Positions 1-60,126 of a stretch of DNA of 64,000 nucleotides are shown one piece after another. Each line of letters begins with the position of its first letter. Positions within the stretch are counted from its first letter, which is position 1. Source of the DNA: Octopus sinensis. Lineage: Eukaryota. The translations under genes and the position numbers were made by a program. The stretch covers positions 12,772,001 to 12,836,000 of the forward strand of contig NC_043023.1 in the NCBI RefSeq assembly GCF_006345805.1. Reading direction: 5' to 3'. The notes under the pieces are model-generated. The model was not told where the DNA came from, searched no databases, and was given only the letters and a program-made list of their open reading frames with translations.

Positions 1-430
1 CTTATGCATACCTTTCCTTCTTGGGACAGAAAACTCTACTACTGAAGACCTGTTGATGCAAGTGAGAATCAAAATCGAAATCAATCAACATCAATGGAAA
101 TTGTAGCTGTGATACCAGTACTGGTTGCACGTAAAAAGCACCATCCGATTGTGGCCATTGCCAGCCACGCCTGGCCTCTGTGCCGGTGGCACATAAAAAG
201 CAACGGCCGATCTTGGCCGAAGCCAGCCTCACCTGGCCCCTGTGCCGGTGGCACATGAAAAGCATCCACTACACTGACAGAGTAGTTGGCGTTTAGGAAG
301 GGCATCCAGCTGTAGAGACACTGCCAGATCAGACTGCAACCTGGTGCAGCCTCCTGGTTTCCCAGACCCAGTCAACTGTCCAACCCATGCTAGCAGGGAA
401 AACAGATGTTAAACAATGATGATGATGAGG
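1..430 (+). mobile_element. RTE-LINE 3' UTR/tail, presumably the 3' end of a ZNF gene upstream of the window
   Basis: Near-identical to 45252-45678, which follows ZNF locus F. Contains ggcgtttaggaagggcatccagctgtag and ends in (GAT)n. Confidence 0.8.
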
Positions 431-1481
431 ATTCTCTATTGTTTCCTGTGACAGACAGCTGTTCTTTTGTGTACTGGACATTTTCAATGTGGGCGCACTC
501 GCGCAAGCTAGTCGTAAGTAGTCGATCCTACAATTTTTTTTATTAAACTAAGTAAATAAATTATTTATAGATCCGCGCCCAGGTGGCAAAAATGGAAAAA
601 AATATGTGTAACAGGTGTAAGGCATCGTATATTGAAGGAATATGACGAAAAAAAAAAGCTCGCTGACAAAGGAGGGGGTGGGGACGGGGCTTGGAAAATT
701 CACACGATCAACCGTACTAGATTGGCGCCCGGGTGGCAAAAATGGTAAAAAATGTGTAAAAGGTGTATATATATACATGTATATATATATCACAGACACA
801 CACACACACACTTACGTGCGCAAACACACATGCACACACACAGACAAACACGCACACACACATATTTCCATATCTGTGACTTGTGTTTGTCCCAAGTCAA
901 CGCTTCATTTTCGGTTTCGGCTGATTACGTCATCGTAACTTAGCAATTCGACAAAAGGAGAAGGAAGGAATGAGTAGCAGTCTGAAGAGAGATAAGCCCA
1001 GCCGTCGATGAGTATGAGTAAACACGCTGATGTGGTGCTCCAGCATGGCGGTCGTCCAAGAATCGAAACTAGCAAACTTCGGACGATAAAATCTACTTTG
1101 TAGGTAAATGGTGTCAAGGGAGAGAACTCTTATATATATATAAACCACATATATTTAAGAGTAGTCTCCCTTAAGACGTTAAAGACAGATGATAGAACTG
1201 AAGCGGTTTCGCAACGTTGTTCAAGGGAGCAAACTCTAGTACCATATATTTGTGAGTATTCTCCCTTGAAACCAATCGTTATGCCAGCAAACTGTACAGG
1301 GGTTGAGAGACGGAGATGGAGAGAGTCAGACCGACAAGCAGTCGGACGGTCACGTAAATCGGTGAATGAAGGATAGAAACGTATTCTGTGTCATTCCATA
1401 AATAATTCGGGTTTTTTTAAAATTTATTTTTCAAGATTAAGATAGGCAGTGTTTTTTTTTTTTAATCTAAAATGTTCTACC

Positions 1482-1482
<1 letters not shown>

Positions 1483-1516
<34 letters not shown>

Positions 1517-1625
1517 ATATATATGTGTGTGTGTGTGTATATATTTATATATATATGTATATATATATATATATATATATGCACTCACACATACACACGC
1601 ATATATATATATATATATATATATA
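1483..1625. repeat. (TA)n/(TG)n microsatellite
   Basis: Visible dinucleotide runs; the paralog is at about 46730-46906. Confidence 0.9.
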
Positions 1626-1804
1626 TTTCATTTCATTTCATCTAATTTCAGCTCATGAGCTGTGGCCATGCTGGGGCACCACCATTTAAAACTTTGTCAA
1701 CAACCAGCCATGGGACTTGAACCCAGATCCCTTGGAGATGCATATTTATATGTATGTATATATATTTATGCATACATTCATATATACATACATATATATA
1801 TATA

Positions 1805-2439
1805 GGAGTTGAGGAACCTGTGGAAGAGGTAGACCCAGGAAAACCTGGGACGAGGTGGTGAAGCACAACCTTTGAACTTTAGGTCTCACCAAGGAAATGA
1901 CTAGAGACCGAGACCTATGGAAGTATGCTGTGCGTGAGAAGACCCGGCAAGACCCCTCAGAACAGTCAAAATCAAACCAAATCAACATCAGTGGAAATTG
2001 CAGCTGTGGTTAAGCAAACCATCCGATCGTTTGTCCGTTGCCAGCGTCGCCTGGCCCCGTGCCTTTGGCATGTAAAAGCACCATCCGCTCGTGTCCGTTG
2101 GCAGCCTCGCCAGGTCCCCGTGCCGGTAGCACGTAAAAGCACCATCCCTTCTTGTCCGTTGCCAACCTCAACTGGCCCCTGTGCCGGTGGCACATAAAAA
2201 CACCATCCGTTCGTGGCTGTTTGCCAGCGCTGTCTGGCACCTGTGCAGGTCGCACGTAAAATGCACCCACTACACTCACGGAGTGGTTGGCGTTAGGAAG
2301 GGCATCCAGCCGTAGAAACACTGCCAAATCTGACTGGGCCTGATAAAGCCTTCCGGCTTCACAGACCCCAGTTAAACCGTCCAACCCATGCTAGCATGGA
2401 AAACGGACGCTAAATGATGATGATGATGATGATGATGAT
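1805..2439 (+). mobile_element. 5'-truncated RTE LINE: ORF C-terminus, 3' UTR and (GAT)n tail
   Basis: Encodes a GRGRPRKTWDEVVKH..DLWKYAVREKTRQD-type end matching the LINE at 3858-4499 and ends gctaaatgatgatgat. Paralog at about 47086-47720. Confidence 0.85.
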
Positions 2440-3400
2440 TCATCAATACATCAAACCCATCTTATAAAGGAAATCTGTGAAAAACAACGGCAAAATATTT
2501 CTTCTGGACGATGGAATTAACAGCAACAATTTGAAGTCTTTGCTGTCTGGAATATAGAGGAGATGATTGTTTTACAGGTTAAATAAGCTTGGATAACTTT
2601 ACAAAGGGGTAGACAATTGTCACCTCTTCATTTAGATATTAAGCAAAATCACAGATGAAAGAAGCATAGCATTAAATTATTCTCTGAAAATAGCAACACA
2701 AATATATTCATAGAAATGAATTTTTTTCCTATTTCAGAATATCATACCATGTTGATTTAAAAGAAATTTCTTCATTCAGATGTGTGTCTGATATTTTGAT
2801 TGACTTTCATCAATTAAAGGAAGACCATATATTCATAAGACACATTCATCAAAACATCAGCTTCTTTATATAAATAAAATCTTCGACGAACGATGGGGAA
2901 ATATTTCTTCTGGATGATGGAATTAAGAGCAACATTTTTTTTGCCATCTGGAATGTAGAGATGATGATGAACCTACAGGTTAAGTTTGAGTAACTTTACA
3001 AAAGAGTTAACCAATTTATATCTTCTGTTTTAGATATTAAGCAAGATCACCAATGAAAGTAACATAACGTTTAATTATTCTCTGATGCATTTGAACACAA
3101 ACATTCATAGAAATGAAACAGATACTATCATTGTGATATGTATAACGAAATTATTCTCTCATAATGAATAATTCAACTAAAGCAAAAGTCTCTGATAAAA
3201 GAGGGAAGCTATATCACTGTGATCATCATCATCATCATCATCGTTTAACGTCCCCTTTCTATGCTAGCATGGGTTGGACGGTTCAACTGGGGTCTGGCAA
3301 GCCCGAAGGCTACACCAGGCCAGTCAGATCTGGCAGTGTTTCTACAGCTGGATGCCCTTCCTAACGCCAACCACTCCGAGAGTGTAGTGGCTGATTTTAT

Positions 3401-3680
3401 GTGCCACCGACACAGGTGCCAGACGAGGCTGGCAGACGGCCACGCTCGGATGGTGTTTTTTATGTGCCACCGACACAGGTGCCAGACGAGGCTGGCAGAC
3501 GGCCACGCTCGGATATGGTGTTTTCGGTGTTTTTCTTATGTGCCACCGACACAGGTGCCAGACGAGGCTGGCGAACGGCTACGATCGGATGGTGTTTGTT
3601 ACGTACCCAAGGCACGGAGGCCAGTCGATGCGTTACCGGCTACGGTCCCTTTCGGATGGTTTTCTTATGTGCCACCGGCA
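3401..3680 (-). repeat. About 63-bp tandem repeats in the RTE 3' UTR
   Basis: gtgccaccgacacaggtgccagacgaggctggc recurs at 3401, 3464 and 3540; the paralog at 48674-49020 has one extra unit. Confidence 0.85.
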
Positions 3681-3857
3681 CTGGTAACACAAGGATACAA
3701 ATTCCATTGATGTTCATCTATTTTGATTTGGTTTGACTTGATTCGATTTGACTTTGATTTGATTTGCCTCAACAGATCTTCACAAGTGTCACAAGCAGGA
3801 AATTATGCACAGGTGGACTGACTACGTCCCAGGTAGGGGCCACGGGTTATGGCTTCA

Positions 3858-4495
3858 CTAGTCTTGCCGGGTCTTCTCACGCACAGCATACTTCCATAGG
3901 TCTCGGTCTCTAGTCATTTCCATGGTGAGACCTAACGTTCGAAGGTCGTGCTTCACCACTTCGTCCCAGGTTTTCCTGGGTCTACCTCTTCCACGGGTTC
4001 CCTCAACTGCTAGGGATTGGCACTTTCTCACACACCTATCTTCATCCATTCTTGCCACATGACCATACCAGCGCAATCGTCTCTCTTGCACGCAACAACT
4101 GATGCTTCTTAGGTACAACATTTCTCTCAGGGAACTAACACTCTGTCGAGTAAGTACACTGACATTACACATCCATCGGAGCATACTGGCTTCATTCCTC
4201 ATGAGCTTACGCATGTCCTCAGCAGTCATGGCCCATGTTTCACTGCCATGTAGCATGGCAGTTCGAACACATGCATCATACAGTCTGCCCTTTACTCTGA
4301 GCGAGAGGCCTTTAGTCACCAGCAGAGGTAAGAGCTCCCTAAACTTTGCCCAGGCTATTCTTATTCTAGCAGTTACACTCTCAGCGCACCCACCCCCACT
4401 ACTGACTTGGTCACCTAGATAACGGAAGCTATCAACTACATCTAATTTTTCCCCCTGGAAAGTGACGGAAGTTGTTTTCTGCAGATTTTCGGAGG

Positions 4496-4499
<4 letters not shown>
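3858..4499 (-). CDS. RTE ORF C-terminal part (RT motif 7 and thumb region)
   Basis: VDSFRYLG, RIRIAWAKFREL, LHGSETW, RLRWYGHVARM. Confidence 0.85.
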
Positions 4500-5809
<1,310 letters not shown>

Positions 5810-7090: not shown

Positions 7091-7119
7091 TAATCGTATC
7101 AATATCAAAATTTGTTACA

Positions 7120-7610
7120 ACCCGGCAGGACAAGTGAGACCACAACCCATGGCCTCTACCTGGGATGTAGCCAGTCCACTTATGCATACCTTTCCTTCTT
7201 GGGACACAAAACTCTACTTGTGAAGACTTGTTGAGGCAAGTGAGAATCAGAATCAAAATCGAAATCAACCAACATCAATGGAAATTGCAGCTGTGATACC
7301 AATGCTGGTGGCATGTAAAAAGCACCATCCGATCGTGGCCATTGCCAGTCTCACCTGGCCCCGTGCGGCTGGCACGTAAAAAGCACCATCCGACCGTAGC
7401 TGTTTGCCAGCCCCGTGTGGCACCTGTGTCCGGTGGCACGTACAAAGCACCCACTACACTCACGGAGTGGTTGGCGTTAGGAAGGGCATCCAGCCGTAGA
7501 AACATTGCCAGATCAGACTGGGCCAGGTGCAGCCTTGTGGCTTCCCAGACCCCGGTCGAACCATCCAACCCATGCTAGCATGGAAAGCGGACGCTAAATG
7601 ATGATGATGA
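7120..7610 (+). mobile_element. RTE 3' tail directly downstream of the ZNF A stop codon
   Basis: acccggcaggacaagtgagaccacaacccatggcc matches the reverse complement of the LINE ORF end and 3' UTR (about 3830-3875). Ends in (GAT)n. Confidence 0.85.
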
Positions 7611-7880
7611 CAAGAATTATGAATATTTTGTCTGCTAAAAGACAGGGTTTATTCCTCTTCAAGCTTGACATTATTAACATCAGTTTCTTGGATGTCAACA
7701 TGAAATTCATGAATCACAACTTCAATATCATTTATATATCTAAATATATCAACACAGAGATGACTTTGGTTTCTGAAGATGATTGTGCTGGATTTTTGAG
7801 GAATTTGTTATGAGAGAATAAAGGAATGGGAATAAGGAATAAAAGTTTTAAGTGACATTGATTTTGTCTTTGTTGTGTTT

Positions 7881-8310
7881 TCATCATTATCATCCTCATC
7901 CTTCTTCTCTTGTTCTCCGCCTCATCCTCCTCTTTTCTTTTTCTTCTTCTTCTCCTCCTCCTCCTTCTCCTCCTTCTCCGTCTTCTTCATCTTCTCCTCC
8001 TTTCTTCTTCTTCTTCTTCTTCTCTTCTTCTTTTTCTTCTTCTTCATTGATTTTGTCTGTTTGTTTTCTTCTCATCATCCTCATCTTTCTTCTTCTTCTT
8101 CTCCTCCTCATCCTCCTTCTTTTTCTTTTTCATCTTCTTCTTCTTCTCCTTCTTCCTCTCCTCCATCTTCTCCTTCTTCTTCTTTTCTTCTTCTTCAGTG
8201 TCCATTTCCTTTGCATGCCTGGGTGGGAAATTGTGACCTGAGCTGGCAAGCCAGAGTGCTGCTCCAGGTTCCGCTCAGATTTTGCTTGCTTTCTTTGGCT
8301 GTATGCCCTT
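7881..8310 (-). repeat. (CAT/CTT/CCT)n pyrimidine microsatellite joined to an old antisense RTE tail
   Basis: About 310 bp of pyrimidine tract followed by cagtgtccatttcctttgcatgcctgggtggg...gtatgccctt, a degenerate minus-strand RTE end. Paralogs at 28581-28850, 52801-53130 and 60398-60660. Confidence 0.7.
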
Positions 8311-8720
8311 AGGATGTCCATTGAGGTGAAAAACATTCTGTGCCTTATGAATATGTCCCTCGTTTAAGAAACAGATTGGGTTTATTTACATTTGTGAAGA
8401 AAAAAAGATAGCCTTGCCCCCACCCTTAAACCTAAAACAGATTGAAATGCAATAGATCGATACTAGGGTCATAATTATGGGTGAAAATTTCAACAAATCA
8501 ATGACGTCTATTGAGGTGAAAACATTCTGTGCCTTATGAATATGTCCCTTGTTTAAGAAACAGATTGGGTTTATTTACATTTGTGAAGAAAAAAAGATAG
8601 CCTCCCCCCACCCCTAACCCTAAAACAGATTGAAATGCAATAGATCGATACTAGGGTCATAATTATGGGTGACAATTTCATATGACACTGCAAGAAAAAA
8701 CTGCCGTTCAAACCGAAAAG

Positions 8721-9070
8721 ATCCGAATGTGTGAGTACACTTTATTGAAAGAATCTTGTAAAAATTTGAAAACCCTTGAAAGTGAAGTTCTTGACAGAAA
8801 GGGACAAAGAGGAAACTACAACGAATCCCACCAGTCAGTAGAGCCACCTATTGGAGAACTGAAAGAAGACAATCATGTAAAGGGAAATAACTTCTGCTAC
8901 ATTTCAACCCCGGTTCAACATTTAAATTATTAATTAAGGTGCTTAATTACTGATTCACTGACTCGTTGCTTATTTGTGAATACGGTAAGTTGATAAAGAT
9001 TAACTTTAAGGCTGTAAAGGTGATAATATACTACTACTACTACTAATAATAATAATAATGTGAATAATAG
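8721..9070 (+). other. Diverged remnant of a ZNF exon-1/intron-1 boundary
   Basis: gaatgtgtgagt..ttgacagaaagggacaaag..taattaaggtgcttaatt..gaatacggtaagttga parallels 10171-10430. Paralogs at about 29070-29420 and 53540-53890. Confidence 0.65.
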
Positions 9071-9565
9071 AATTCTGTGAACCTCTTTATGTTACAGTAA
9101 TTACTTTTCGAAGCGGGAACCTGACAACAATTAAGAAAATGTGTCGGTAGCACGTTAAAAGCACCAACTGATCGTGGCCGATGCCGGACTCCCTGGCACC
9201 TGTGCAGGTGGCACATAATAAGCACCCAATACACTTCTGGAGTGGTTGGCGTTAGGAAGGGCATCCAGCTGTAGAAACACTGCCAGATCATACTGAGACA
9301 ACTTACAAATTACAATTTTCTCAAGAAAGCCAAGAGAAAAAATGTTTTATTTTGACACATTCTCCCAGTAAACGAAATTTTAAAGTGTTTAGTTAACTAG
9401 AAATTGTGTTGAAAACTGCCGTTCAAAAGGAAAAGATCCCTCAACAATGCTATTGATGAACGAAATATTGTGAAGCATTTTGTCTGGCATGCTAGTGACC
9501 CTGCCAGTAAATAATGGGATTATGTGAACCCTTCAATGTTAAAGTAATCATATAGAAGTGAAAAC

Positions 9566-9966
9566 GGATCTTTTCGGTTTGAACGGCAGTTTTTTCTAGT
9601 GGTGCCATATGAAATTGTCACCCATAATTACGACCCTGGTATCAATCTATTGCATTTCAATCTGTTTTAGGGGAAGGGTATATTTTTTTTTTCACAAACA
9701 TAAATAAACCAAATCTGTTTCTTAAACGAGGGACATATTCATACGGCACAGAATGTTTTTTTTACCTCAATAAACGTCAGTGATTGGTTGAAATTGCAGA
9801 AATTGAAGAAAAAAAACAACAAATATCTTACAAACCGTTGAATTTTCTCAATAAAGCCAAGAGAAACAGATGTTTTATAAACACATTCTACCAGTATACG
9901 AAGTTTAAAAGTGTTTAGTTACGTGGAAATTATTTTTAAAAACTGCCGGTCAAACCGAAAAGATCC
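9566..9966. mobile_element. MITE with GGATCTTTTCGGTTTGA...TCAAACCGAAAAGATCC terminal inverted repeats
   Basis: TIRs of about 28 bp seen directly. Copies at 16618-17021, 22155-22554, 31002-31668 (composite), 40135-40516 and 54382-54782; partial copies at 8320-8724 and 17150-17332. Confidence 0.75.
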
Positions 9967-10020
9967 CCAAGAGGTATCCAAGCATTGTTCTTTAGATGAG
10001 AGAGAAGTGTGAAGGAAGGA

Positions 10021-10177
10021 CAATGATTGGACAGGAGAGAAAATGACGTCAGAAACGGATGGAAGTGCAACGGCCTGACGTCACATCAGGAAGATATAAG
10101 TCAAAGATGCCTTCTTTCTTTCGGTGTCTGCGACGGGGTCCAGTTCGTGCGCTGGAAACGGTCGTAGATTAGAATAT
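10021..10177 (+). promoter_or_regulatory. Putative promoter and non-coding exon 1 of ZNF B
   Basis: ATTGG (reverse CCAAT), TGACGTCA twice, GGAAGTG, GATATAAG, a CpG-rich stretch, then donor GTGAGT at 10178. Confidence 0.65.
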
Positions 10178-10431
10178 GTGAGTGTATATATTCTATATTA
10201 CCTTGAAGGTAAAATCGTTGACAGAATGGGACAAAGAAGACACAGGAACGAAACGAACCAGTCATAGAAAATTGAAGAACTATAACCATATAAAGGGATA
10301 TAACTTTCCTTAATTAATTAATTAAGGTGCTTAATTAACGATCGTTGACTCGTTGTTTGTATCTGAATACGGTAAGTTGACAACGATTTATTTTAAGGCT
10401 GTAATGATGATGATAATACCAATAATAATAA

Positions 10432-10643
10432 GGTACTACTAGCGAACAGTGGTCCCGGTGCGTGCACTCGCGTATCCGCGCTTGCTAGTCGTAAGTAGTC
10501 GAATCTACAATTTTGAAAACTAAGTAAATACATTATTTTTGTAAACAAACTAAGGTTAGGTTTAAAAAGTCGTTGTAGGATCGACTACATACGACTAGCT
10601 AGCGCGAGTGCGCGCACCGGGGCCACTGTTCGCTTGTAGTACC
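10432..10643. mobile_element. Fold-back MITE, GGTACTACTAGCGAACAGTGG...CCACTGTTCGCTAGTAGTACC type
   Basis: Long TIRs seen directly. One copy sits in intron 1 of each promoter-bearing unit (about 17802-18018, 23022-23221, 32132-32348, 41312-41499 partly deleted, 55249-55464). Confidence 0.75.
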
Positions 10644-10820
10644 GCGCGCCTCTCCAAGATAATGACGCTTACTTGAGAGAAAAAGTTAGGAAATGGGAAA
10701 TATATCCAGAATACATAAAGTATGGAGAAAATTAGAAAGATTGATCTATTTTTTAAATATTTTATGCTAAAAAATAAAATACGGAGAACGGGCACTCGCG
10801 AATATAAACAAACATATAAG

Positions 10821-11195
10821 GGTACTATTTAAGAAGAGAGGTCCCGGTGGGCGCGCTAGCTAGTCGTGACTAGTCGATCCTTACTTTGTATGTTTGTATT
10901 TAAAAAAATTATTTTCTTTGTTTGAAAAAATGAGCGTAACTTCGGTATAGGTACCGGAAGTACCAGATACATTTCAAGAAAGTGTTTTTTTATACATATA
11001 TGGGGGGGGGGGGTTATGGTTAAGGTTTGTGTTAGGGGTCGGAGAAAAGGGTTTCTGTTATCTTCAGAAATGTAAACAAAGCCACTCACGGTATCTATAC
11101 CGAAGGATCGCCAAAAATTATTTATTTTGTGTTTTAATTACTTTGGTAGGTAGTCGTTGTAGGATCGACTAGTCACGACTCTTTTAAATAGTACC
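10821..11195. mobile_element. Related MITE, GGTACTATTTAA...TTAAATAGTACC, with an internal inverted repeat
   Basis: TIRs plus internal ttcggtataggtaccg / cggtatctataccgaa. Present in units B, C, D, E, F and H. Confidence 0.7.
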
Positions 11196-11673
11196 GGAGA
11201 AAATTAGAACGATTAATCTATTTTTAACTATTTTACACTAAAAATAAAATACGCAGAACGGGCACTCGCGAATATAAACAAACATGTATGTACGTATACG
11301 TATGTATTTATGCATATATATGTATTATTATGTATACATATATGTGTGTGTGTAAGGGTGAAAGAAATTGAATATTAATTAATAACATCAATTTCGTATG
11401 GATTTTGGCGTTTGGTTCAGCAAATTATGTTTTTGATATACTCTACCGATGATTCGAAAATGATTTGTAAGTAAAATTACACAATCTATTAACGATGAAA
11501 CAATTGTATAGAGTTAATCCATTTTTTCGTTATTTTTCATTTGTCCTGCCCCCTTACATTCTTGGCGTGTTGAATTAATGCTTGAGAACAATTCTTTAGT
11601 GGTGGATTCCCTTTGCGGATCTATTTCTAGCGTTAGAGTGACCACATGTGGTCCTTCTCTTATTACTTGTATG

Positions 11674-11706
<33 letters not shown>

Positions 11707-11989
11707 ATACAAATATATTTGTAGTGAATCTTGCACGCATGAAGTAGATTGGATCCACCATAGCCAAAATTTTAATTAACCCTTCACCAAAATTTTTCAT
11801 ATGGCAGAACAATAGAGAAATCTCAATACAGAATGTTGTAAAAGTTTCAATGCCTCAATGGATTCTGACCCCTGCAAACATAGACATTAAATGGACGACA
11901 GTGTTGATGTTGTAAGATTTGCAATGTTGAATTACTATGTCGTTTAATGATTCTCTTTATCTCACTGCTTCTTTTTTTTTCTATTTCAG

Positions 11990-12819
11990 AATATAACATC
12001 CTGTTGATATGAAAGAAATTACTTCATTCAGATGTGCCTCTGATATTCTATAAGCTCCCATCAACCAAAGGAAGATGATATATTTATAAGGAGCATTCAT
12101 CAATACATCAAACTCATCTCATAAAGGAAATCTGTGAAAAACAACAGCAAAATATTTCTTCTGGACGATGGAATTAACAGCAACAATTTGAAGTCTTTGC
12201 TGTCTGGAATATAGAGGAGATGATTGTTTTACAGGTTAATTAAGCTTGGATAACTTTACAAAGGGGCAGGCAATTGTCACCTCTTGATTTAGATATTAAG
12301 CAAGATCACAGATGAAAGAAGCATAGCATTAAATTATTCTCTGAAAATAGCAACACAAATATATTCATAGAAATGAATTTTTTTCCTATTTCAGAATATC
12401 ATACCATGTTGATTTAAAAGAAATTTCTTCATTCAGATGTGTGTCTGATATTTTGATTGACTTTCATCAATTAAAGGAAGACCATATATTCATAAGACAC
12501 ATTCATCAAAAGTTCAGCCTCTTTATATAAAAAAATCTTTGATGAATGATGGGGAAGTATTTCTTCTGGATGATGGAGTTAAGAGCAACATGTTTTTTGC
12601 CATCTGGAATGTAGAGATGATGATGAACCTACAGGTTAAGTTTGAGTAACTTTACAAAAGAGTTAACCAATTTATATCTTCTGTTTTAGATATTAAGCAA
12701 GATCACCAATGAAAGTAACATAACGTTTAATTATTCTCTGATGCATTTGAACACAAACATTCATAGAAATGAAACAGATACTATCATTGTGATATGTATA
12801 ACGAAATTATTCTCTCATA
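11990..12819 (+). other. Two tandem ~400-bp decayed leader segments, each after a splice acceptor (putative 5' UTR of ZNF B)
   Basis: Acceptors tttctatttcag|aatat at 11989 and 12394. Both copies share cttcattcagatgtg, aaatatttcttctgga, acaggttaa and ttagatattaagcaa. The same arrangement precedes each locus (first copy 5'-truncated in A and G). Confidence 0.7.
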
Positions 12820-13788
12820 ATGAATAATTCAACTAAAGCAAAAATCTCTGATAAAAGAGAGAAGCCATATCACTGTGATATCTGTGGTAAGTCATTCTCT
12901 AAAAGTGGCAACTTAACTAGTCACAAACGTGTTCATACAGGAGAGAAACCATATCAGTGTGATATCTGTGGTAAATCATTTTCTCGAAGTGCTGACTTAC
13001 CTAAACACAAATGTACTCATACAGGAGAGAAACCATATCAGTGTGATATCTGTGGTAAATCATTTACTAGAAATAGTACTTTGACTAGTCATATACGTAT
13101 TCATACTGGGGAAAAACCATATCAGTGTGATATCTGTGGCAAATCCTTTTCTGAGCCTTCTTCTTTAAAAGGGCACAAACGTATTCATACAGGTGAGCAG
13201 CCATATCATTGCGATATCTGTGGTGTATCATTCTCTGAAAATAGCCATTTAACCAGACACCTACGTATTCATACTGGGGAAAAACCATATCAATGTGATA
13301 TCTGTGGTAAGTCATTTTCTGGTAATAGCAATTTAATCAGTCACAGACGTATTCATACTGGGGAAAAACCATATCAATGTGATATCTGTGGTGCATCATT
13401 CTCTGAAAATAGCCCTTTAACCAGACACCTACGTATTCATACAGGAGAGAAGACATATTGTTGTAATATCTGTGGTAAATCATTTTCTCAGCCCTCTACT
13501 TTAAAAGGGCACAAACGTATTCATACGGGTGAGAAGCCATATCGGTGTGATATCTGTGGTAAATCATTTTCTCAGCCCTCTACTTTAAAAGGGCACAAAC
13601 GTATTCATACAGGTGAGAAGCCATATCAATGTGATATCTGTGGTGAATCATTCTCTTACAGTAGTGACTTACCTAAACATAAACGTATTCATATTGGGGA
13701 AAAACCATATCATTGTGATATTTGTGGTGAGTCATTCTCTCAAAAACGCCACTTAAGTACACATATGAGTATTCATACACAGGTGTAA
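12820..13788 (+). CDS. C2H2 zinc-finger protein B, 322 aa, 11 fingers, intact
   Basis: Uninterrupted CxxC-x12-HxxxH repeats with TGEKPY linkers; ends with the family terminal finger STHMSIHTQV*. Confidence 0.92.
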   Translation: MNNSTKAKISDKREKPYHCDICGKSFSKSGNLTSHKRVHTGEKPYQCDICGKSFSRSADLPKHKCTHTGEKPYQCDICGKSFTRNSTLTSHIRIHTGEKPYQCDICGKSFSEPSSLKGHKRIHTGEQPYHCDICGVSFSENSHLTRHLRIHTGEKPYQCDICGKSFSGNSNLISHRRIHTGEKPYQCDICGASFSENSPLTRHLRIHTGEKTYCCNICGKSFSQPSTLKGHKRIHTGEKPYRCDICGKSFSQPSTLKGHKRIHTGEKPYQCDICGESFSYSSDLPKHKRIHIGEKPYHCDICGESFSQKRHLSTHMSIHTQV

Positions 13789-13815
13789 TCGTATCAATAT
13801 CAAAATTTATTACAA

Positions 13816-14312
13816 CCCGGCAGGACAAGTGAGACCATAACCCATGGCCTCTACATAGAATGTAGCCAGTCCACTTATGCATACCTTTCCTTCTTGGGAC
13901 ACAAAACTCTACTTGTGAATACCTGTTGAGGAAGGGAGAATCAGAATCAAAATCGAAATAAATCAACATTAATGGAAATTGTAGCTGTGATACCAGTGCT
14001 GGTGGCACGTAAAAAGCAACATTAGAACGTGGCCGTTGCCAGCACCGTCCCAACTGGCTTCCGGGCCGGTGGCACGTAAGAAGCACCAACCGATCGTGGC
14101 CGCTGCCAGCCTCTCCTGGCCCTTGTGCCCGTGGCACGTAAAAAGCATCCACTACATTCACAGAGTGGTTGGCGTTTAGGAAGGGCATCCAGCTGTAGAA
14201 ACACTTCAGATCAGACTGCAACCTGGTGCAGCCTCCTGGCTTCCCAGACCCCAGTCAACCGTCCAACCCATGCTAGCAGGGAAAACAGATGTTATACAAT
14301 GATGATGAGGAG
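13816..14312 (+). mobile_element. RTE 3' tail downstream of ZNF B
   Basis: Same junction as 7120; ends aatgatgatgagg. Confidence 0.85.
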
Positions 14313-14420: not shown

Positions 14421-14818
14421 TTCTCTCTTTCTCTTTCTCTTTTACTTGTTTCAGTCGTTTGACTGTGGCCATGCTGGAGCACCGCCTTTAATGCAGCATC
14501 TCGAACCCGGGACTTATTCTTTTGTAAGCCGAGTACTTATTCTATCGGTCTCTTTTGCCGAACTGCTAAGTGACGGGGACATAGACAAACCAGCATCGAT
14601 TGTCAAGCAATGCTAAGGGGACAAACACAAACACATGCATATATATACATCTATACAACAGGCTTCTTTCAGTTTCCGTCTATCAAATCCACTCACAAGG
14701 CTTTGGTCGGCATGAGGCTATAGTAGAAGACACTTACCCAAGGTGCCACGCAGTGGGACTGAACCTGGAACCATGTGGTTGGTAAGCAAGCTACTTACCA
14801 CACAGCCACTCCTGCGCC
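14421..14818 (-). mobile_element. tRNA-derived SINE (octopus OR/CORE-like)
   Basis: Minus strand starts ggcgcaggagtggctgtgtggtaag (A box), has ggttcagtccc (B box), an accttgggtaagtg CORE-like segment and an AG-rich tail. Confidence 0.8.
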
Positions 14819-18197: not shown

Positions 18198-18473
18198 TGT
18201 AAGAGTTAGCAGTTCCTTCTCTAAGCTTGGATTCGAAATCGAATCCAAGAATCATCGGTCGTCAAATACCAATGCATGTATAGGCGCGAAATTAAGAATC
18301 CCTTTGTTCTGACAGAAACTGATTGATCATCTCCCTTTGACCTCCGACCTGAGCAATGTCAGGATAAAGGGATTCTTAATTTCGCGCCTATAGATGCATT
18401 GGTATTTGACGTCCGACGATTCTTGGACTCGATTTCGAATCCAAGCTTAGGGAAGGAAGTGCTAACTCTTACA
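18198..18473. mobile_element. 276-bp fold-back element, TGT...ACA ends, 4-bp TSD AGGG (Ginger-like non-autonomous transposon)
   Basis: Arms of about 117 bp; AGGG on both sides; empty site ataagggtac at 10816-10825. Confidence 0.8.
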
Positions 18474-20534: not shown

Positions 20535-21755
20535 ATGAATAATTCAACTAAAGCAAAAATCTCTGATAAAAGAGAGAAGCCATATCACTGTGATATCTGT
20601 GGTAAGTCATTCTCTGAAAGTGGTAATTTAAGAAGGCACAGACGTGTTCATACTGGAGAAAAACCATATCAGTGTGATATCTGTGGTAAATCATTTTCTG
20701 AAAATAGCACTTTAACTCATCACAAATTTATTCATACTGGGGAAAAGCCGCATCAGTGTGATATCTGTGGTAAATCATTTTCTCAAAATAGCACTTTAAC
20801 TCATCACAAATTTATTCATACTGGGGAAAAGCCGCATCAGTGTGATATCTGTGGTAAATCATTTTCTCAAAATAGCACTTTAACTCATCACAAATTTATT
20901 CATACTGGGGAAAAGCCGCATCAGTGTGATATCTGTAGTAAATCATTTTCTCAAAATAGCAATTTAACTCATCACAAATTTATTCATACTGGGGAAAAGC
21001 CGCATAAGTGTGATACCTGTAGTAAATCATTTTCTCAAAAAATTGAATTGACTGTCCATAAACGTATTCATACTGGTGAAAAACCATATCAGTGTGATAT
21101 CTGTTGTAAATCATTTTCTCAAAGTGCTACCTTAGCTACACACAAACGTACTCATACAGGAGAGAAACCATATCAGTGTGATATCTGTGGTAAATCATTT
21201 TCTCGAAGTGCTGACTTACCTAAACACAAACGTACTCATACAGGAGAGAAACCATATCAGTGTGATATCTGTGGTAAATCATTTTCTCGAAGAGCTGATT
21301 TAATTAGACACAAACGTACTCATACAGGAGAGAAGCCATACCATTGTGATATCTGTGGTGAATCATTTTCTAGAAGTAACATTTTAACTGATCACAAACT
21401 TATTCATACAGGAGAGAAGCCATACCATTGTGATATCTGTGGTAAATCATTCACTACAAATAGTAATTTGACTAGTCATATACGTATTCATACTGGGGAA
21501 AAACCATATCAGTGTGATATCTGTGGTGAATCATTCTCTGAGATTGGCACTTTAACCCGACACGTACGTACTCATACAGGAGAGAAACCATATCAGTGTG
21601 ATATCTGTGGTAAATCATTTTCTCGAAATGGTAACTTAAATAAACACAAACGTACACATACTGGAGAAAAGCCCCATCATTGTAATATCTGTGGTAAATC
21701 ATTTTCTAGAAGTAACAGTTTAACAGTTCACAATCGTATTCATACAGGAGAGTAG
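20535..21755 (+). CDS. C2H2 zinc-finger protein C, 406 aa, 14 fingers, TAG in a linker; array 3' end deleted at about 21890
   Basis: From the ORF track. One more finger and part of another follow the stop, then MITE sequence; the terminal finger and RTE tail are missing. Confidence 0.85.
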
Positions 21756-21905
<150 letters not shown>

Positions 21906-25803: not shown

Positions 25804-27030
25804 ATGAATAATTCAACTAAAGCAAAAATCTCTGGTAAAAGAGAAAAGCCATATCACTGTGATATCTGTGGTAAGTCATTCTCTCAAAGTTGTAATCTAA
25901 GAAGGCACAAACGTGTTCATACTGGAGAAAAACCATTTCAGTGTGATATCTGTGGTAAATCATTTTCTGAAAACAGCACTTTAACTCGTCACAAATTTAT
26001 TCATACTGGGGAAAAGCCGCATCAGTGTGATATCTGTGGTAAATCATTTTCTCGAAGTGCTGACTTACCTAAACACAAACGTACTCATACAGGAGAGAAT
26101 CCATATCAGTGTGATATCTGTGGTAAGTCATTTTCTGGTAATAGCAATTTAATCAGTCACAGACGTATTCATACAGGAGAGAAACCATATCAGTGTGATA
26201 TCTGTGGTAAATCATTCTCTACCAGTGGTGTCTTAAATAAACACAAACGTACACATACAGGAGAAAAGCCCCATCATTGTAATATCTGTGGTAAATCATT
26301 TTCTAGAAGTGACAGTTTAACTGATCACAGACGTATTCATACAGGAGAGAAGCCATACCATTGTGATATCTGTGGTAAATCATTTTCCCATAATTCTACT
26401 TTAAACAAGCACAAACGTATTCATACAGGTGAGAAGCCATATCACTGCGATATCTGTGGTCAATCATTCTCTGAAAATAGCACTTTAACTAGACACCTAC
26501 GTATTCATACAGGAGAGAAGCCATATCATTGTAATATCTGTGGTAAATCATTCTCTTACAGTAGTGACTTACCTAAACACAAACGTATACACACTGGCAA
26601 AAAACCATATCACTGTGATATCTGTGGTAATTCATTTTCTTGTAATAGAAATTTAATCAGTCACAAACGTATTCATACAGATGAAAAACCATATCACTGT
26701 GATATCTGTGGTAAGTCATTTTCTGGTAATAGCATTTTAATCATTCACAGACGTGTTCATACAGGAGAGAAACCATATCAGTGTGATATCTGTAGTAAAT
26801 CATTTTCTGACAAAAGCTCTTTAACTCATCACAAATTTATTCATACTGGGGAAAAGCCGCATCAGTGTGATATCTGTGGTAAATCATTCTCTCAAATTAG
26901 TCACTTGACTCAACACAAACGTGGTCATACAGGAGAGAAACCATATCAGTGTGATATCTGTGGTAAATCATTTTCTCGAAGAGCTGATTTAACTGAACAC
27001 AAACGTACTCATACAGGAGAGAAACCATAG
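25804..27030 (+). CDS. C2H2 zinc-finger protein D, 408 aa, 14 fingers; the array continues to 27860 (about 24 finger units)
   Basis: From the ORF track. A 3-bp deletion (tatcag to tag) makes the stop. Five more finger units stay in frame before a frameshift at about 27460. Confidence 0.85.
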   Translation: MNNSTKAKISGKREKPYHCDICGKSFSQSCNLRRHKRVHTGEKPFQCDICGKSFSENSTLTRHKFIHTGEKPHQCDICGKSFSRSADLPKHKRTHTGENPYQCDICGKSFSGNSNLISHRRIHTGEKPYQCDICGKSFSTSGVLNKHKRTHTGEKPHHCNICGKSFSRSDSLTDHRRIHTGEKPYHCDICGKSFSHNSTLNKHKRIHTGEKPYHCDICGQSFSENSTLTRHLRIHTGEKPYHCNICGKSFSYSSDLPKHKRIHTGKKPYHCDICGNSFSCNRNLISHKRIHTDEKPYHCDICGKSFSGNSILIIHRRVHTGEKPYQCDICSKSFSDKSSLTHHKFIHTGEKPHQCDICGKSFSQISHLTQHKRGHTGEKPYQCDICGKSFSRRADLTEHKRTHTGEKP

Positions 27031-27409
27031 TGTGATATCTGTGGTAAATCATTTTCTCGAAGTGCTGAATTACCTAAACACAAACGTACTCATACAGGAG
27101 AGAAACCATATCAGTGTGATATCTGTGGTAAATCATTTTCTCAAAGAGCTGATTTACCTAGACACAAACGTACTCGTACAGGAGAGAAACCATATCAGTG
27201 TGATATCTGTGGTAAATCATTTTCTGAAAATAGCAATTTAACTCATCACAAATTTATTCATACTGGGGAAAAGCCATACCATTGTGATATCTGTGGTAAA
27301 TCATTCAGTAGAAATAATAATTTGACTAGTCATATACGTATTCATACTGGGGAAAAACCATATCAATGTGATATCTGTGGTGAATCTTTCTCTGAAAATG
27401 GCCCTTTAA

Positions 27410-27779
<370 letters not shown>

Positions 27780-27886
27780 TAACGTTGTGATATTTGTGGT
27801 GAGTCATTCTCTCAAAAACGCCAATTAAGTACACATCTGAGTATTCATACAGAGGTGTAATCGTATCAATATCAAAATTTATTACA

Positions 27887-28309
27887 ACCCGGCAGGACAA
27901 GTGAGACCACAACCCATGGCCTCTACCTGGGATGTAGCCAGTCCACTTATGCATACCTTATCTTCTTGTGACACAAAACTCTACTTGTGAAGACCTTTTG
28001 AGGCAAGTGAGAATCAAAATCGAAATCAACCAACATCAATGGAAATTGCAGCTGTGATACCAGTGCTGGTGGCATGTAAAATGCACCATCCGATCGTGGC
28101 CGTTGCCATTCCCGCCTGGCACCTGTGTCCGGTGGCACGTAAAAAGCACCCACTACACTCACGGAGTGGTTGGCATTAGGAAGGGCATCCAGCCGTAGAA
28201 ACATTGCCAGATCAGACTGGGCCAGGTGCAGCCTTCTGGCTTCCCAGACTCCAGTTGAACCGTCCAACCCATGCTAGCATGGAAAGCGGATGCTAAATGA
28301 TGATGATGA
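27887..28309 (+). mobile_element. RTE 3' tail downstream of the ZNF D array
   Basis: Same junction as 7120. Confidence 0.85.
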
Positions 28310-30263: not shown

Positions 30264-30875
30264 GGATCTTTTCCTTTTGATGGCCAGTTTTCAACACAAT
30301 TTCTAGTTAACTAAACACTTTTAAACTTCATATACTGGTAGAATGTGTTAAAATAAAACATTTTCTTCTCTTGGCTTTCTTGCGAAAATTGTAATTTGTA
30401 AGTTTAACGTAGTTTAATTTTTCAAATTTTAACCAATGAATCACCTCTATCTAGCTAAAATCATTTGCTGCGTCTAAAACTGAGACAACATCCTATAGAA
30501 TTATTTTTTTGTTAATTGTTTAAATTATTTTCCATTGCTTTCGTTTTAGCCTTTCGTTTTTTTTTTTATAATTGTTATCCTTAAATTAATTTAACAATTA
30601 AGAAAAAAAAACCGAAAGGCTAAAATTTTGGGTGAGGGTTAGGGTTAAGGTTAGTGACAGGATGTTGACTCAGTTTTAGACGCAGCAAATGACTTCAGCT
30701 TTGGATAAAATTCGATAAAATTAAACTACGTTAAACTTTCAAATTACAATTTTCTCAAGAAAGCCAAGAGAAAAAAAATGTTTTATTTTGACACATTCTA
30801 CCATTATACGAAGTTTTAAAGTGTTTAATTAACTAGAAATTGTGTTGAAAACTGCAGTTCAAAAGGAAAAGATCC
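30264..30875. mobile_element. MITE, GGATCTTTTCCTTTTGA...TCAAAAGGAAAAGATCC, long palindromic arms and internal TTAGGG
   Basis: 30264-30500 is inverted at 30655-30875. Only the right arm survives at 9300-9440, 21915-22030 and 54115-54255. Confidence 0.75.
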
Positions 30876-34263: not shown

Positions 34264-35535
34264 ATGAATAATTCAACTAAAGCAAAAATCTCTGATAAAA
34301 GAGAGAAGCCATATCAGTGTGATATCTGTGGTAACTCATTCTCTAAAAGTGGTAATCTAAGTAGGCACATACGTGTTCATACTGGAGACAAACCTTATAA
34401 GTGTGATATCTGTAGTAAATCATTTTCTGACAATAGCTCTTTAACTCATCACAAATTTATTCATACTGGGGAAAAGCCGCATCAGTGTGATATCTGTGGT
34501 AAATCATTCTCTCAAATTAGTCACTTGACTGAACACAAACGTGGTCATACAGGAGAGAAGCCATACCATTGTGATATCTGTGGTAAATCATTTTCTAGAA
34601 GTAACATTTTATCTGATCACAAACTTATTCATACAGGAGAGAAGCCATTCCATTGTGATATCTGTGGTAAGTCATTTTCTCGAAGAGCTGATTTACCTAG
34701 ACACAAACGTACCCATACAGGAGAGAAACCATATCAGTGTGATATCTGTGGTAAATCATTCTCTTCCAGTGGTGACTTAAATAAACACAAACGTACACAT
34801 ACAGGAGAAAAGCCCCATCATTGTGATATCTGTGGTAAATCATTCACTAGAAATAGTGATTTGACTAGTCATATACGTATTCATACTGGGGAAAAACCAT
34901 ATCAGTGTGATATCTGTGGCAAATCATTTTCTGAGCCTTCTTCTTTAAAGGGGCACAAACGTATTCATACAGGTCAGAAGCCATATCATTGCGATATCTG
35001 TGGTAAATCATTCTCTGAAAATAGCAATTTCACCAGACACCTACGTATTCATACAGGAGAGAAGCCATATTATTGTGATATCTGTGGTAAATCATTTTCT
35101 CAGCCTTCTGCTTTAACCAGACACCTACGTATCCATACAGGAGAGAAGCCATATCAGTGTGATATCTGTGGTAAATCATTCTCTTACAGTAGTGACTTAC
35201 CTAAACACAAACGTATACACACTGGGGAAAAAGAATATCACTGTAATATCTGTGGTGAATCATTTTCTTGTAATAGCCATTTAACCAGACACAAACATAT
35301 TCATACAGGAGAGAAGCCATATCATTGTGACATCTGCGGTAAATCATTTTCCCATAATTCTGCTTTAAAAGGGCACAAACGTATTCATACAGGAGAGAAG
35401 CCATATCATTGTGACATCTGTGGTAAATCATTCTCTCACAGTAGTAACTTGCACAAACATAAACGTATTCATATTGGGGAAAAACCATATCATTGTGATA
35501 TTTGTGGTGAGTCATTCTCTCAAAAAACCACTTAA
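34264..35535 (+). CDS. C2H2 zinc-finger protein E, 423 aa, 14 complete fingers; terminal finger frameshifted
   Basis: From the ORF track. caaaaaaccactt versus caaaaacgccactt in B; the ancestral stop is at 35565-35567. Confidence 0.88.
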
Positions 35536-35593
35536 CTACACATCTGAGTATTCATACACAGGTGTAATCATATCAATATCAAAATTTATTACA

Positions 35594-36025
35594 ACCCGGC
35601 AGGACAAGTGAGACCATAACCCATGGCCTCTACCTGGGATGTAGCCAGTCCACTTATGCATAGCTTTCCTTCTAGGGACACAAAACTCTACTTGTGAAGA
35701 CCTGTTGAGGCAAGTGAGAATCAGAATCCAAATCGAAATCAATCAACATCAATGGAAATTGTAGCTGTGATACCAGTGCTGGTGGATCGTAAAACGCACT
35801 ATCCGATCGTGGCCATTGCCAGTCTCCCCTGGCCCCTGTGCCGGTGGCACGTAAAAAGCATCCACTACACTCACAGAGTGGTTGGCGTTTAGGAAGGGCA
35901 TCCAGCTGTAGAAACACTGCCAGATCAGACTGCAACCTGGTGCAGCCTCTTGGCTTCCCAGACCCCAGTCAACCGTCCAACCCATGCTAGCAGGGAAAAC
36001 AGATGTTATACAATGATGATGAGGA
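35594..36025 (+). mobile_element. RTE 3' tail downstream of ZNF E
   Basis: Same junction as 7120. Confidence 0.85.
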
Positions 36026-36134: not shown

Positions 36135-36534
36135 TTCTCTCTTTCTCTTTCTCTTTTACTTGTTTCAGTCGTTTGACTGCGGCCATGCTGGAGCTCCGCC
36201 TTTAATAGAGCATCTCGACCCCGGGATTTATTCTTTTGTAAGCCCAGTACTTATTCTATCGGTCTCTTTTGCCAAACTGCTAAGTGACGGGGACATAGAC
36301 TCACCAGCATCGATTGTCAAGCAATGCTAGGGGGACAAACACAGACACACATGCATATATATACATCTATACAACAGGCTTCTTTCAGTCTCTGTCTACC
36401 AAATCCACTCACAAGGCTTTGGTCGGCATGAGGCTATAGTAGAAGATACTTACCCAAGGTGCAACGCAGTGGGACTGAACCTGGAACAATGTGGTTGGTA
36501 AGCAAGCTACTTACCACACAGCCACTCCTGCGCC
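36135..36534 (-). mobile_element. tRNA-derived SINE, paralog of 14421-14818
   Basis: A and B boxes and the same flanks. Confidence 0.8.
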
Positions 36535-37597: not shown

Positions 37598-38019
37598 TTC
37601 CTCTATTTACATAATATTAAGGTCTCTTTCTTTCTTTTGTTATCTTACTGTTTTTACCAATATACATATATATATATATATATAAATATATATATAGTTA
37701 CAGAGATGTACTTGCATAGCAAGTGACTTGATCTGAGATCGTGTGCTGGAACGAAAACAGTTGCAGCGTTGAAGGTGTTTATAAGCCATTTAAGAAACAC
37801 ACAAAAACCGTTAGATTCACTTCAACATTTAAATTTAATTTGTCAAAATATTTTCGTCGCTTTGAGACCGCGACCTGTTAGCACGATATTTTTGTCAGTG
37901 AACAGGTCGCGGTCTCAAAGCGACAAAAATATTTTGGCAAATTAAATTTAAATGTTGAAGTGAATGTAACGGTTTTTGTGTGTTTCTTAAATGGCTTAGA
38001 AACACCTTCCACGCTGCAA
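37598..38019. mobile_element. Penelope-like pLTR fragment with an inverted duplicate
   Basis: 37761-37879 is inverted at 37901-38019; carries a minimal hammerhead-like motif; TA microsatellite flanks. Confidence 0.55.
37891..37941 (+). ncRNA. Minimal type I hammerhead-like motif, G3:C8 variant; this copy has G12A
   Basis: tttgtca GTGAACA g gtcgc-ggtctcaaa-gcgac (A/G)AAA atat TT tg(g/a)caaa; the inverted copy keeps GAAA and tgacaaa. Confidence 0.55.
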
Positions 38020-43679: not shown

Positions 43680-45166
<1,487 letters not shown>

Positions 45167-45192: not shown

Positions 45193-45678
45193 ACCCGGCA
45201 GGACAAGTGAGACCATAACCCATGGTCTCTACCTGGGATGTAGCCAGTCCACTTATGCATACTTTCCTTCTTGGGACAGAAAACTCTACTACTGAAGACC
45301 TGTTGATGCAAGTGAGAATCAAAATCGAAATCAATCAACATCAATGGAAATTGTAGCTGTGATACCAGTACTGGTTGCACGTAAAAAGCACCATCCGATC
45401 GTGGCCATTGCCAGCCACGCCTGGCCTCTGTGCCGGTGGCACATAAAAAGCAACGGCCGATCTTGGCCGAAGCCAGCCTCCCCTGGCACCTGTGCCGAAG
45501 GCACATGAAAAGCATCCACTACACTGACAGAGTAGTTGGCGTTTAGGAAGGGCATCAAGCTGTAGAGACACTGCCAGATCAGACTGCAACCTGGTGCAGC
45601 CTCCTGGTTTCCCAGACCCAGTGAACTGTCCAACCCATGCTAGCAGGGAAAACAGATGTTAAACAATGATGATGATGA
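45193..45678 (+). mobile_element. RTE 3' tail downstream of ZNF F
   Basis: Same junction as 7120. Confidence 0.85.
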
Positions 45679-48437: not shown

Positions 48438-52012
<3,575 letters not shown>

Positions 52013-52038: not shown

Positions 52039-52530
52039 ACCCGGCAGGACAAGTGAGACCACAACCCATGGCCTCTACCTGGAATGTAGCCAGTCCACTT
52101 ATGCATACCTTTCCTTCTTGGGACACAAAACTCTACTTGTGAAGACTTGTTGAGGCAAGTGAGAATCAGAATCAAAATCAAAATCAACCAACATCAATGG
52201 AAATTGCAGCTGTGATACCAATGCTGGTGGCATGTAAAAAGCACCATCCGATCGTGGCCATTGCCAGTCTCGCCTGGCCCCCGTGCTGGTGGCACATAAA
52301 AAGCACCATCCGACCGTAGCTGTTTGCCAGCCCCGTGTGGCACCTGTGTCCGGTGGCACGTACAAAGCACCCACTACACTCACGGAGTGGTTGGCGTTAG
52401 GAAGGGCATCCAGCTGTAGAAACATTGCCAGATCAGACTCTGCCAGGTGCAGCCTTCTGGCTTCCCAGACCCCAGTTGAACCGTCCAACCCATGCTAGCA
52501 TGGAAAGCGGACGCTAAATGATGATGATGA
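52039..52530 (+). mobile_element. RTE 3' tail downstream of ZNF G
   Basis: Same junction as 7120. Confidence 0.85.
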
Positions 52531-54835: not shown

Positions 54836-54994
54836 CAATGATTGGACAGGAGAGAAAATGACGTCAGAAAACGGATCGGAAGTGCAACGGCCTGACGTCA
54901 CATCAGGAAGATATAAGTCAAAGATGCCTTCTTTCTTTCGGTGTCTGCGACGGGGTCCAGTTCGTGCGCTGGAAACGGTCGTAGATTAGAATAT
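54836..54994 (+). promoter_or_regulatory. Putative promoter and exon 1 of ZNF H
   Basis: Same motif set as 17387-17544. Confidence 0.62.
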
Positions 54995-55638
54995 GTGAGT
55001 GTATATATTCTATATTACCTTCAAGGTAAAATCGTTGACAGAATGGGACAAAGAAGACACCAGAACGAAACGAACCAGTCATAGAAATTTGAAGAACTGT
55101 AACCATATAAAGGGATATAACTTTCCTTAATTAATTAATTAAGGTGCTTAATTAACGATCACTGACTCGTTGTTTGTATCTGAATACGGTAAGTTGACAA
55201 AGATTTATTTTAAGGCTGTAATGATGATGATAATACCAATAATAATAAGGTACTACTAGCGAACAGTGATCCCGGTGCGAGCACTCGCGTATCCGCGCTT
55301 GCTAGTCGTAAGTAGTCGATCCTACAATTTTTAAAACTAAGTAAATACATTATTTTTGTAAACGAACTAAGGTTAGGGTTAAAAAGTCGTAGGATCGACT
55401 ACTTACGACTAGCTAGCACGGATGCGTGAGTGCGCGCACCGGGCCACTGTTCGCTAGTAGTACCGCGCACCTCTCCAAGATAATGACGCTTACTTGTGAG
55501 AAAAAGTTAGGAATGGAAATATATCCAGATACATAAAGTATGGAGAAATTATAAAGATTGATCTATTTTTTAAATATTTTATACTAAAAAATAAAATACG
55601 GGGAACGGGCACTCGCGAATATAAACAACATACAAGGG

Positions 55639-55913
55639 TGTAAGAGTTAGCAGTTCCTTTCTAAGCTTGGATTCGGAATCGAATCCAAGAATCATCGGTC
55701 GTCAAATACCAATGCATGTATAGGCGCGAAATTAAGAATCCCTTTGTTCTGACAGAAACTGATTGATCATCTCCCTTTGACCTCCGACCCGAGCAATGTC
55801 AGGACAAAGGGATTCTTAATTTCGCGCCTATACATGCATTGGTATTTGACGACCGATGATTCTTGGACTCGATTTCGAATCCAAGCTTAGAGAAGGAAGT
55901 GCTAACTCTTACA
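55639..55913. mobile_element. Ginger-like fold-back element, copy 3
   Basis: TGTAAGAG...CTCTTACA with AGGG TSD. Confidence 0.8.
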
Positions 55914-58001: not shown

Positions 58002-59662
<1,661 letters not shown>

Positions 59663-59693
59663 TCGTATCAATATCAAAATTTATTACAACCCA

Positions 59694-60126
59694 CCCGCAG
59701 GACAAGTGAGACCACAACCCATGGCCTCTACCTGGGATGTAGCCAGTCCACTTATGCATACCTTATCTTCTTGTGACACAAAACTCTACTTGTGAAGACC
59801 TTTTGAGGCAAGTGAGAATCAAAATCGAAATCAAAATCAAAATCAACCAACATCAATGGAAATTGCAGCTGTGATACCAGTGCTGGTGGCATGTAAAATG
59901 CACCATCCAATCGTGGCCGTTGCCATTCCCGCCTGGCACCTGTGTCCGGTGGCACGTAAAAAGCACCCACTACACTCACGGAGTGGTTGGCATTAGGAAG
60001 GGCATCCAGCCGTAGAAACATTGCCAGATCAGACTGGGCCAGGTGCAGCCTTCTGGCTTCCCAGACCCCAGTTGAACCGTCCAACCCATGCTAGCATGGA
60101 AAGTTGACTCTAAATGAGGATGATGA
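59694..60126 (+). mobile_element. RTE 3' tail downstream of ZNF H
   Basis: Closely matches 27887-28309. Confidence 0.85.

Follow-up and report, generated by a model that had tools for sequence, protein, structure and literature searches.

A LINE 3' end shared by tandem C2H2 zinc-finger genes of Octopus sinensis, with two types of terminus

When neighbouring zinc-finger (ZNF) genes end in the 3' tail of a LINE, does that tail make their mRNAs substrates for retroposition, or has it simply been multiplied along with the genes? The stretch of Octopus sinensis DNA analysed here (64,000 nt, hereafter the window) holds eight C2H2-ZNF units, A to H, arranged head to tail on the plus strand.

3164 (A), 12820 (B), 20535 (C), 25804 (D), 34264 (E), 43698 (F), 48438 (G), 58002 (H), plus strand: ATGs of the units
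10072..11989, plus strand: putative promoter/exon 1 of gene B, with GT donor at 10178 and intron 1 to AG 11989 (splice consensus)
12820..13788, plus strand: ZNF gene B, 322 aa, 11 fingers, the sole frame running to the shared stop
20535..21895, plus strand: ZNF gene C, 406 aa, 14 fingers before TAG
25804..27860, plus strand: ZNF unit D, frame ending at 27028 after 14 fingers
34264..35567, plus strand: ZNF unit E, 423 aa, 14 fingers, frameshift immediately 5' of the shared stop
43698..45166, plus strand: ZNF unit F, frameshift after 2 canonical fingers
58002..59662, plus strand: ZNF unit H, degenerate, stop at codon 24

Seven of the eight units carry the tail, and in one of these seven, B, the frame from ATG to shared stop is unbroken. 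D, E, F and H contain an early stop or a frameshift, and A and G are broken in finger 1 by an antisense LINE. C, D and E still code 14 fingers but end before the shared stop, and F and H break early; assembly or sequencing indels may be the source of some of the breaks in D, E, F and H. Unit C has lost its 3' end and tail through a deletion that reaches into the following spacer. The preliminary description, in which every complete ZNF gene ended in the tail, is therefore right about the tail in seven of eight units, but "complete" applies to B only. Searches with the ZNF protein returned generic multi-finger proteins (best 120 of 7,993 matches).

Donor, intron 1 and acceptor are retained in six of the eight units (B, C, D, E, F and H), the putative intron measuring 1.5-2.2 kb, and no homologue precedes A or G; exon 1 and intron 1 are called here from splice consensus alone. 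A and G have lost both, and retain 720 nt upstream and kilobases of downstream spacer. A truncated LINE copy lies at the point of loss.

1803..2437, plus strand: second truncated LINE copy, at the point of exon 1/intron 1 loss in A
47084-47718: duplicate of this copy, before G

This copy is internally deleted as well as truncated and resembles an insertion-associated deletion. On the 5' side of each ATG there is also a direct duplication of ~405 nt (11973-12773 in B), 75% identical, and each of its halves begins with a sequence resembling a splice acceptor.

We found the tail to start at the same place behind every unit in which its beginning can be seen.

7091..7119, plus strand: shared TAA of unit A and the 26-nt spacer up to the LINE junction
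7120..7609, plus strand: tail A, type I; final LINE codons, 3' UTR with ~62-nt repeats, hairpin, (GAT)n
13815..14307, plus strand: tail B, type II; both hairpin stems broken, AATAAA at 13957 within the tail
27887..28308, plus strand: tail D, type I, shorter by one repeat
35594..36021, plus strand: tail E, type II, shorter by one repeat
45193..45677, plus strand: tail F, type II
52039..52529, plus strand: tail G, type I, hairpin intact
59689..60125, plus strand: tail H, type I, triplet run degenerate
1..427, plus strand: eighth tail, type II, F-like, its unit cut by the window edge

The 5' junction lies 26 nt past the TAA and is identical in all seven visible cases; that of the eighth tail falls outside the window. 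Each tail begins with the last four to five codons of the LINE (TRQDK and stop in the tails, TRQD and stop in the young element at 3222-5620) and aligns with the 3' UTR of that element at about 72-85%, which bears out the earlier reading of the tail as the last codons and 3' UTR of an RTE-type element, in sense, down to (GAT)n. The tails close with three to four GAT-type triplets, a run that is degenerate in H, and the count of ~62-nt repeats is lower by one in D, E and H. The terminal 20-mer has 17 matches in the window and none in 100 shuffles, so the similarity is not due to chance, and the 17 hairpin matches reduce to about seven distinct elements. The tail recurs through inheritance of a single event rather than through seven. 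The same junction each time, as first described, holds for the 5' end; the 3' end falls into two types, each with its own end and flank. A tRNA-derived SINE was ruled out as the source of the tail, which has no tRNA, 5S or 7SL head (0 ARAGORN and 0 Rfam hits in the window) and starts in LINE coding sequence.

The LINE family occupies 11,456 of the 64,000 nt (18%), and a young copy that serves as reference for the tail lies inside the array itself.

3222..5620, minus strand: young LINE with RT and PHD, 5'-truncated, in finger 1 of unit A; reference for the tail
48495..50941, minus strand: duplicate of this antisense LINE in unit G, 98% identical

The young copy codes a reverse transcriptase (RVT_1, E=1e-31), is truncated before the endonuclease, and was inserted bluntly with no target-site duplication. 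Its RT has 3,087 relatives near its length and 973 longer ones, of which the best 120 in each group were considered. Among the highest-ranking long ones, P0121, P0122, P0124 and P0125 (1037-1071 aa, 59-61% identity) combine PF03372 with PF00078; the highest-ranking long ones as a group are single ORFs of ~1,040-1,100 aa with endonuclease and RT, often with a PHD finger. Two RTE features are thus present, namely a single ORF of ~1,000-1,100 aa with AP endonuclease and RT (through the long relatives) and a 3' end in short tandem repeats, here (GAT)n, rather than poly(A). Two others are missing: the 3' UTR is about 636 nt in the young copy rather than very short, and a target-site duplication of ~6-15 bp is seen neither at the seven tails nor at the young insertion in A. 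We regard the element as RTE-like on its architecture and trinucleotide end, the matched relatives carrying no clade labels. The description of RTE elements in the available text of PMC2887409 fits both of these traits, but the 5'-truncated RTE-clade copies described there (Tay et al. 2010) have an extremely short UTR where ours is ~636 nt with ~62-nt repeats, and our element further differs in having no target-site duplication and in having relatives with a PHD finger after the RT. The octopus RTE-2_OV, in the part of PMC9115989 that describes it, is similar in its RTE-type single ORF with a zinc finger and in a 3' UTR of ~600 nt that is rich in repeats. The two RTE-2_OV primers tested have no match in the window within three mismatches; their sites may fall outside the truncated copy. 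No relative turned up when bacterial and archaeal genome contigs were scanned with the RT.

Two independent antisense LINE 3' ends, 78% identical, are found at 3214-3242/48487-48515 and at 16340-16407/39857-39918. Both lie at one finger register, after the Y-H-C-D codons; one is in finger 1 of A and G and the other is beside a decayed finger remnant, whose profile score was reached by none of 100 shuffles. This suggests, from two events only, that microhomology priming by (GAT)n makes finger repeats a recurrent target.

Close to the end of each tail is a hairpin.

7562..7593, plus strand: two-stem terminal hairpin of the LINE 3' end; in A with one lower-stem mismatch

The last 50 nt fold as this two-stem hairpin with z of -1.8 to -2.8 in intact copies. 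It is intact in G, near-intact in D (one G-U pair) and nearly intact in A and H; both stems are broken in the type II tails B, E and F (-4.5 to -6.6 vs -11.6 kcal/mol). The hairpin sequence translates to the C-terminal peptide of a relative (P0002), and a similar end occurs in 12 of the 105 relatives that reach the C-terminal motif. In those relatives the terminal motif forms the last ORF codons, and here it lies ~580 nt past the stop, so the long UTR with ~62-nt repeats between ORF and hairpin looks like a derived gain. When bacterial and archaeal contigs were scanned for the hairpin, two unrelated ones (L001 and L002) carried it followed by (GAT)n, with one pair changed on both sides. Both are short contigs of a bacterial MAG, and L002 also has RT fragments on the opposite strand; the LINE ends on them are probably eukaryotic contamination. 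In an alignment of 16 distinct rows 89% of the cells pair, but covariation is not above control, as 86 of 500 shuffles reach the score. The hairpin is therefore the conserved 3' end of the LINE family, and it is likely the binding site of the LINE protein, by analogy with L2-clade LINEs, which depend on a stem-loop (PMC4176376, in the passages available).

The tails form a two-type mosaic. Type I (A, D, G and H) and type II (B, E, F and the edge copy at 1-427) have separate 3' ends and flanks, each flank being common to four of the eight tails. Over the first ~190 nt the two types diverge by 6.8%, and over the last ~160 nt by 13.7%; within types the values are 3.2-6.0%. Fixed differences between types number 3 in 191 columns of the 5' part and 15 in 161 of the terminal part (Fisher p=0.001); the same contrast in single pairs gave p=0.007, 0.05 and 0.09 (three pairs, the sequences not being independent). 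Type I ends are 89-92% identical to several independent insertions of the family and 83-88% identical to type II. Type II forms its own clade (support 96/97), and the node that joins type I with independent copies has support 84/87. Local similarity between the type I and type II flanks is not above that of shuffles (p=0.69). When the initial 80 nt of each flank are aligned globally, the score is negative but beats 98% of shuffles (p=0.02), which leaves a small chance of remote homology between the flanks. No target-site duplication was found for the seven tails, the longest shared word being 4-5 nt and away from the junctions, and consequently neither type is marked as the original. Two candidates were discarded: a donor of the 3' swap inside the window, since no other copy bears either flank, and a decayed finger as the origin of the spacer or of either flank (profile p=0.35, 0.88 and 0.77).

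How, then, did the tail come to stand behind so many units? The 700 nt 5' of the ATG are 96.0-98.1% identical over all eight units, and 2-3 kb of upstream DNA with donor and acceptor are common to six of the eight; a tree of the eight units from upstream DNA was unresolved. We also detected a higher-order duplication in which 1-3598 maps to 45252-48860 and 7611-10823 to 52531-55639, so that the block made up of the edge unit, A and the following spacer recurs at F-G-H. The shared flanks show unequal crossing-over at the DNA level, and the six units with exon 1 and intron 1 likewise indicate that amplification took place in DNA.

LINEs insert by target-primed reverse transcription, and by this route a severely 5'-truncated RTE-like LINE would have inserted once, in sense, 26 nt past the ancestral ZNF stop. 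The gene with its promoter, intron and spacer was then multiplied by unequal crossing-over into tandem units of 6-9 kb, with the tail hitch-hiking. In one lineage the last ~160-180 nt and the downstream flank would have been swapped for those of another copy of the LINE family, presumably through homologous exchange in the ~62-nt repeat zone. The tail would probably make up most of the 3' UTR and behave as neutral sequence; in six of seven pairs its conservation does not exceed that of the 280 nt that follow (1.9-5.8% vs 1.4-4.3%), although CpG decay may inflate the divergence of the tail and so weaken this comparison. Most likely, then, the tail is an old, neutral piece of LINE carried along in a ZNF array that evolves by birth and death, and half of the copies have had their 3' end recombined. 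The original proposal of one insertion copied by tandem duplication survives for the 5' junction, and the 3' end needs a second event, the LINE-copy swap.

The two 3' types could also have arisen at the RNA level, either by template switching, with the reverse transcriptase jumping from LINE RNA to an mRNA of ZNF plus tail, or because the junction is that of a chimeric ZNF-LINE retrocopy later re-fused to a promoter. Template switching predicts one 5' junction with a differing terminal segment and flank, as observed, and the single-exon ZNF coding region would suit a chimera. However, exon 1 and intron 1 are present in units of either type (D and H vs B, E and F), so that further recombination within the array would be needed, and there is no notable microhomology at the junction; we consider an RNA-level origin very improbable.

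The preferred reading, hitch-hiking in a tandem array, has parallels. In the available parts of PMC9068888, PMC10547256 and PMC12988792, tandem C2H2-ZNF clusters of coleoids and other animals are described as head-to-tail multi-finger genes with birth and death and a heavy TE load. Gene B differs in showing no KRAB domain among 25 of its 42 Pfam matches. In the most likely case, then, a TE fragment in a 3' UTR was duplicated along with a tandem gene array, which matters little in itself; the two 3' types nevertheless record recombination between LINE copies reshaping a ZNF cluster. Palindromic MITE-like inserts lie in intron 1 and the spacers (10432-10643, 18198-18473, 30264-30875 and 37761-38019); some of them are confined to a subset of the units and are possible markers of duplication order.

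Whether the tail is part of the mRNA depends on where transcripts end. The spacer between stop and tail contains no AATAAA or ATTAAA.

7817..7843, plus strand: first two AATAAA past the stop of A, 208 and 229 nt beyond (GAT)n, with equal offsets in D, G and H

The first canonical poly(A) signal past (GAT)n lies at 208 nt in A, D, G and H, at 73 nt in E and at 115 nt in F; B alone has an AATAAA within the tail (13957), 350 nt before (GAT)n. Because the first canonical signals lie beyond (GAT)n in all but B, the ZNF mRNAs, B excepted, probably include the tail if the genes are transcribed. The tail would then sit internally, ~90-250 nt inside the polyadenylated mRNA. More than 35% of O. vulgaris transcripts hold a fragment of an interspersed repeat according to the available text of PMC9115989, which makes a repeat in a 3' UTR ordinary there. 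Four tail motifs had no match in the accessible content of four supplements of that paper.

A tail that reaches the mRNA raises the possibility advanced in the preliminary description, that ZNF mRNAs serve the LINE protein as trans substrates for retroposition, giving ZNF copies elsewhere. The tail retains the terminal hairpin and (GAT)n, the hairpin being intact or near-intact in G and D, and this 3' end is deeply conserved (the P0002 C-terminus, the 12 of 105 relatives, and contigs L001 and L002). The family has a young copy in the window, and between stop and tail there is no canonical poly(A) signal. Stem-loop dependence in L2-clade LINEs (PMC4176376) and the common sharing of tails between RTE elements and SINEs (PMC3747384), both as given in the portions available, would suit such recognition. 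Against this, no retrocopy is present in the 64 kb, where the junction motif is confined to the seven tandem units; within a polyadenylated mRNA the tail would not stand at the end; its 5' part matches the young element at only ~80%; and hairpin covariation, as noted, does not exceed control. Among the units, B, E and F have both stems broken (B, the sole unbroken frame, with its AATAAA inside the tail as well), A and G are without exon 1 although G has the best hairpin, and H is degenerate. D, with promoter, type I end and a hairpin with one G-U pair, is the best candidate.

The hallmarks of processed retrocopies listed in the available text of PMC5470649 are likewise absent from this array. 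The units are not intron-less or promoter-less, as six of the eight keep donor, intron and acceptor, and the copies do not each have a flank of their own, as two flank types serve the eight tails. The proposed seeding of ZNF copies by tail-bearing mRNAs is not borne out in the window, where the copies were made at the DNA level and the junction occurs in tandem units only, and we judge recognition of these mRNAs in trans to be unlikely. The fuller version, that the family holds the cis-recognition tail of a still-active stringent LINE and that type I members with a promoter and an almost intact hairpin, above all D, yield mRNAs that are primed internally at (GAT)n to give dispersed retrocopies, seems to us equally doubtful. 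The arrangement does resemble the sharing of tails between SINEs and LINEs with stringent 3' recognition, where the available text of PMC3747384 and PMC4176376 likewise has a two-stem hairpin with an internal loop followed by short repeats. In the SINEs described there, however, the RNA ends at the repeats and has a Pol III head, whereas the ZNF tail would lie within a Pol II mRNA, and the window shows no mobilised copy. In the parts of the open-access literature available we found no earlier account of a ZNF cluster behind which a LINE tail has become fixed.

The tail arrangement is a real yet ordinary feature and not evidence of RNA-mediated gene spread. Since the ZNF-LINE junction is a unique tag, the retrocopy question is within reach of one genome search. 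If dispersed retrocopies existed, a protein-coding family could ride as passenger of a stringent LINE; this would bear on the spread of very large ZNF repertoires outside their clusters, and would amount to SINE-like spread of a gene family where LINEs should otherwise ignore mRNAs.

A further possibility is that the tail was co-opted as a common regulatory 3' UTR, as a piRNA/siRNA target or an ADAR substrate, coupling ZNF expression to LINE activity. It is kept in seven of the eight units, and each tail shares 2-37 identical 21-mers with the UTR of the young LINE (longest exact runs 22-49 nt); repeats in 3' UTRs are often edited in coleoids, as reported in the available part of PMC9068888. 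Linkage alone, however, accounts for the retention, unit C is without a tail and yet has a 14-finger frame, and the tail shows no excess conservation. Folded by itself, the sense tail of A or D does no better than shuffled sequence and that of B only marginally better; the longest helix is 7-10 bp. For the co-regulation by ADAR suggested earlier this means that no long duplex is formed by the sense tail on its own. An inverted partner within the gene is present only in A and G, which are without exon 1, and otherwise the nearest antisense copy lies 2 kb or farther off, past the poly(A) signals. Small-RNA targeting of the tail is possible, but generic, and co-option as a whole has little probability in our view.

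Two other repeats lie among the units and at the edge of the window. A dispersed repeat of ~370 nt occurs at 14427-14795, 36141-36511, 61222-61415 and 62599-62974, and may be a common octopus SINE. The minus strand of 63383-63850, which adjoins a 140-nt tandem pair, resembles the C-terminal portion of a LINE from another family; its match to DUF6451 is weak (E=0.0009).
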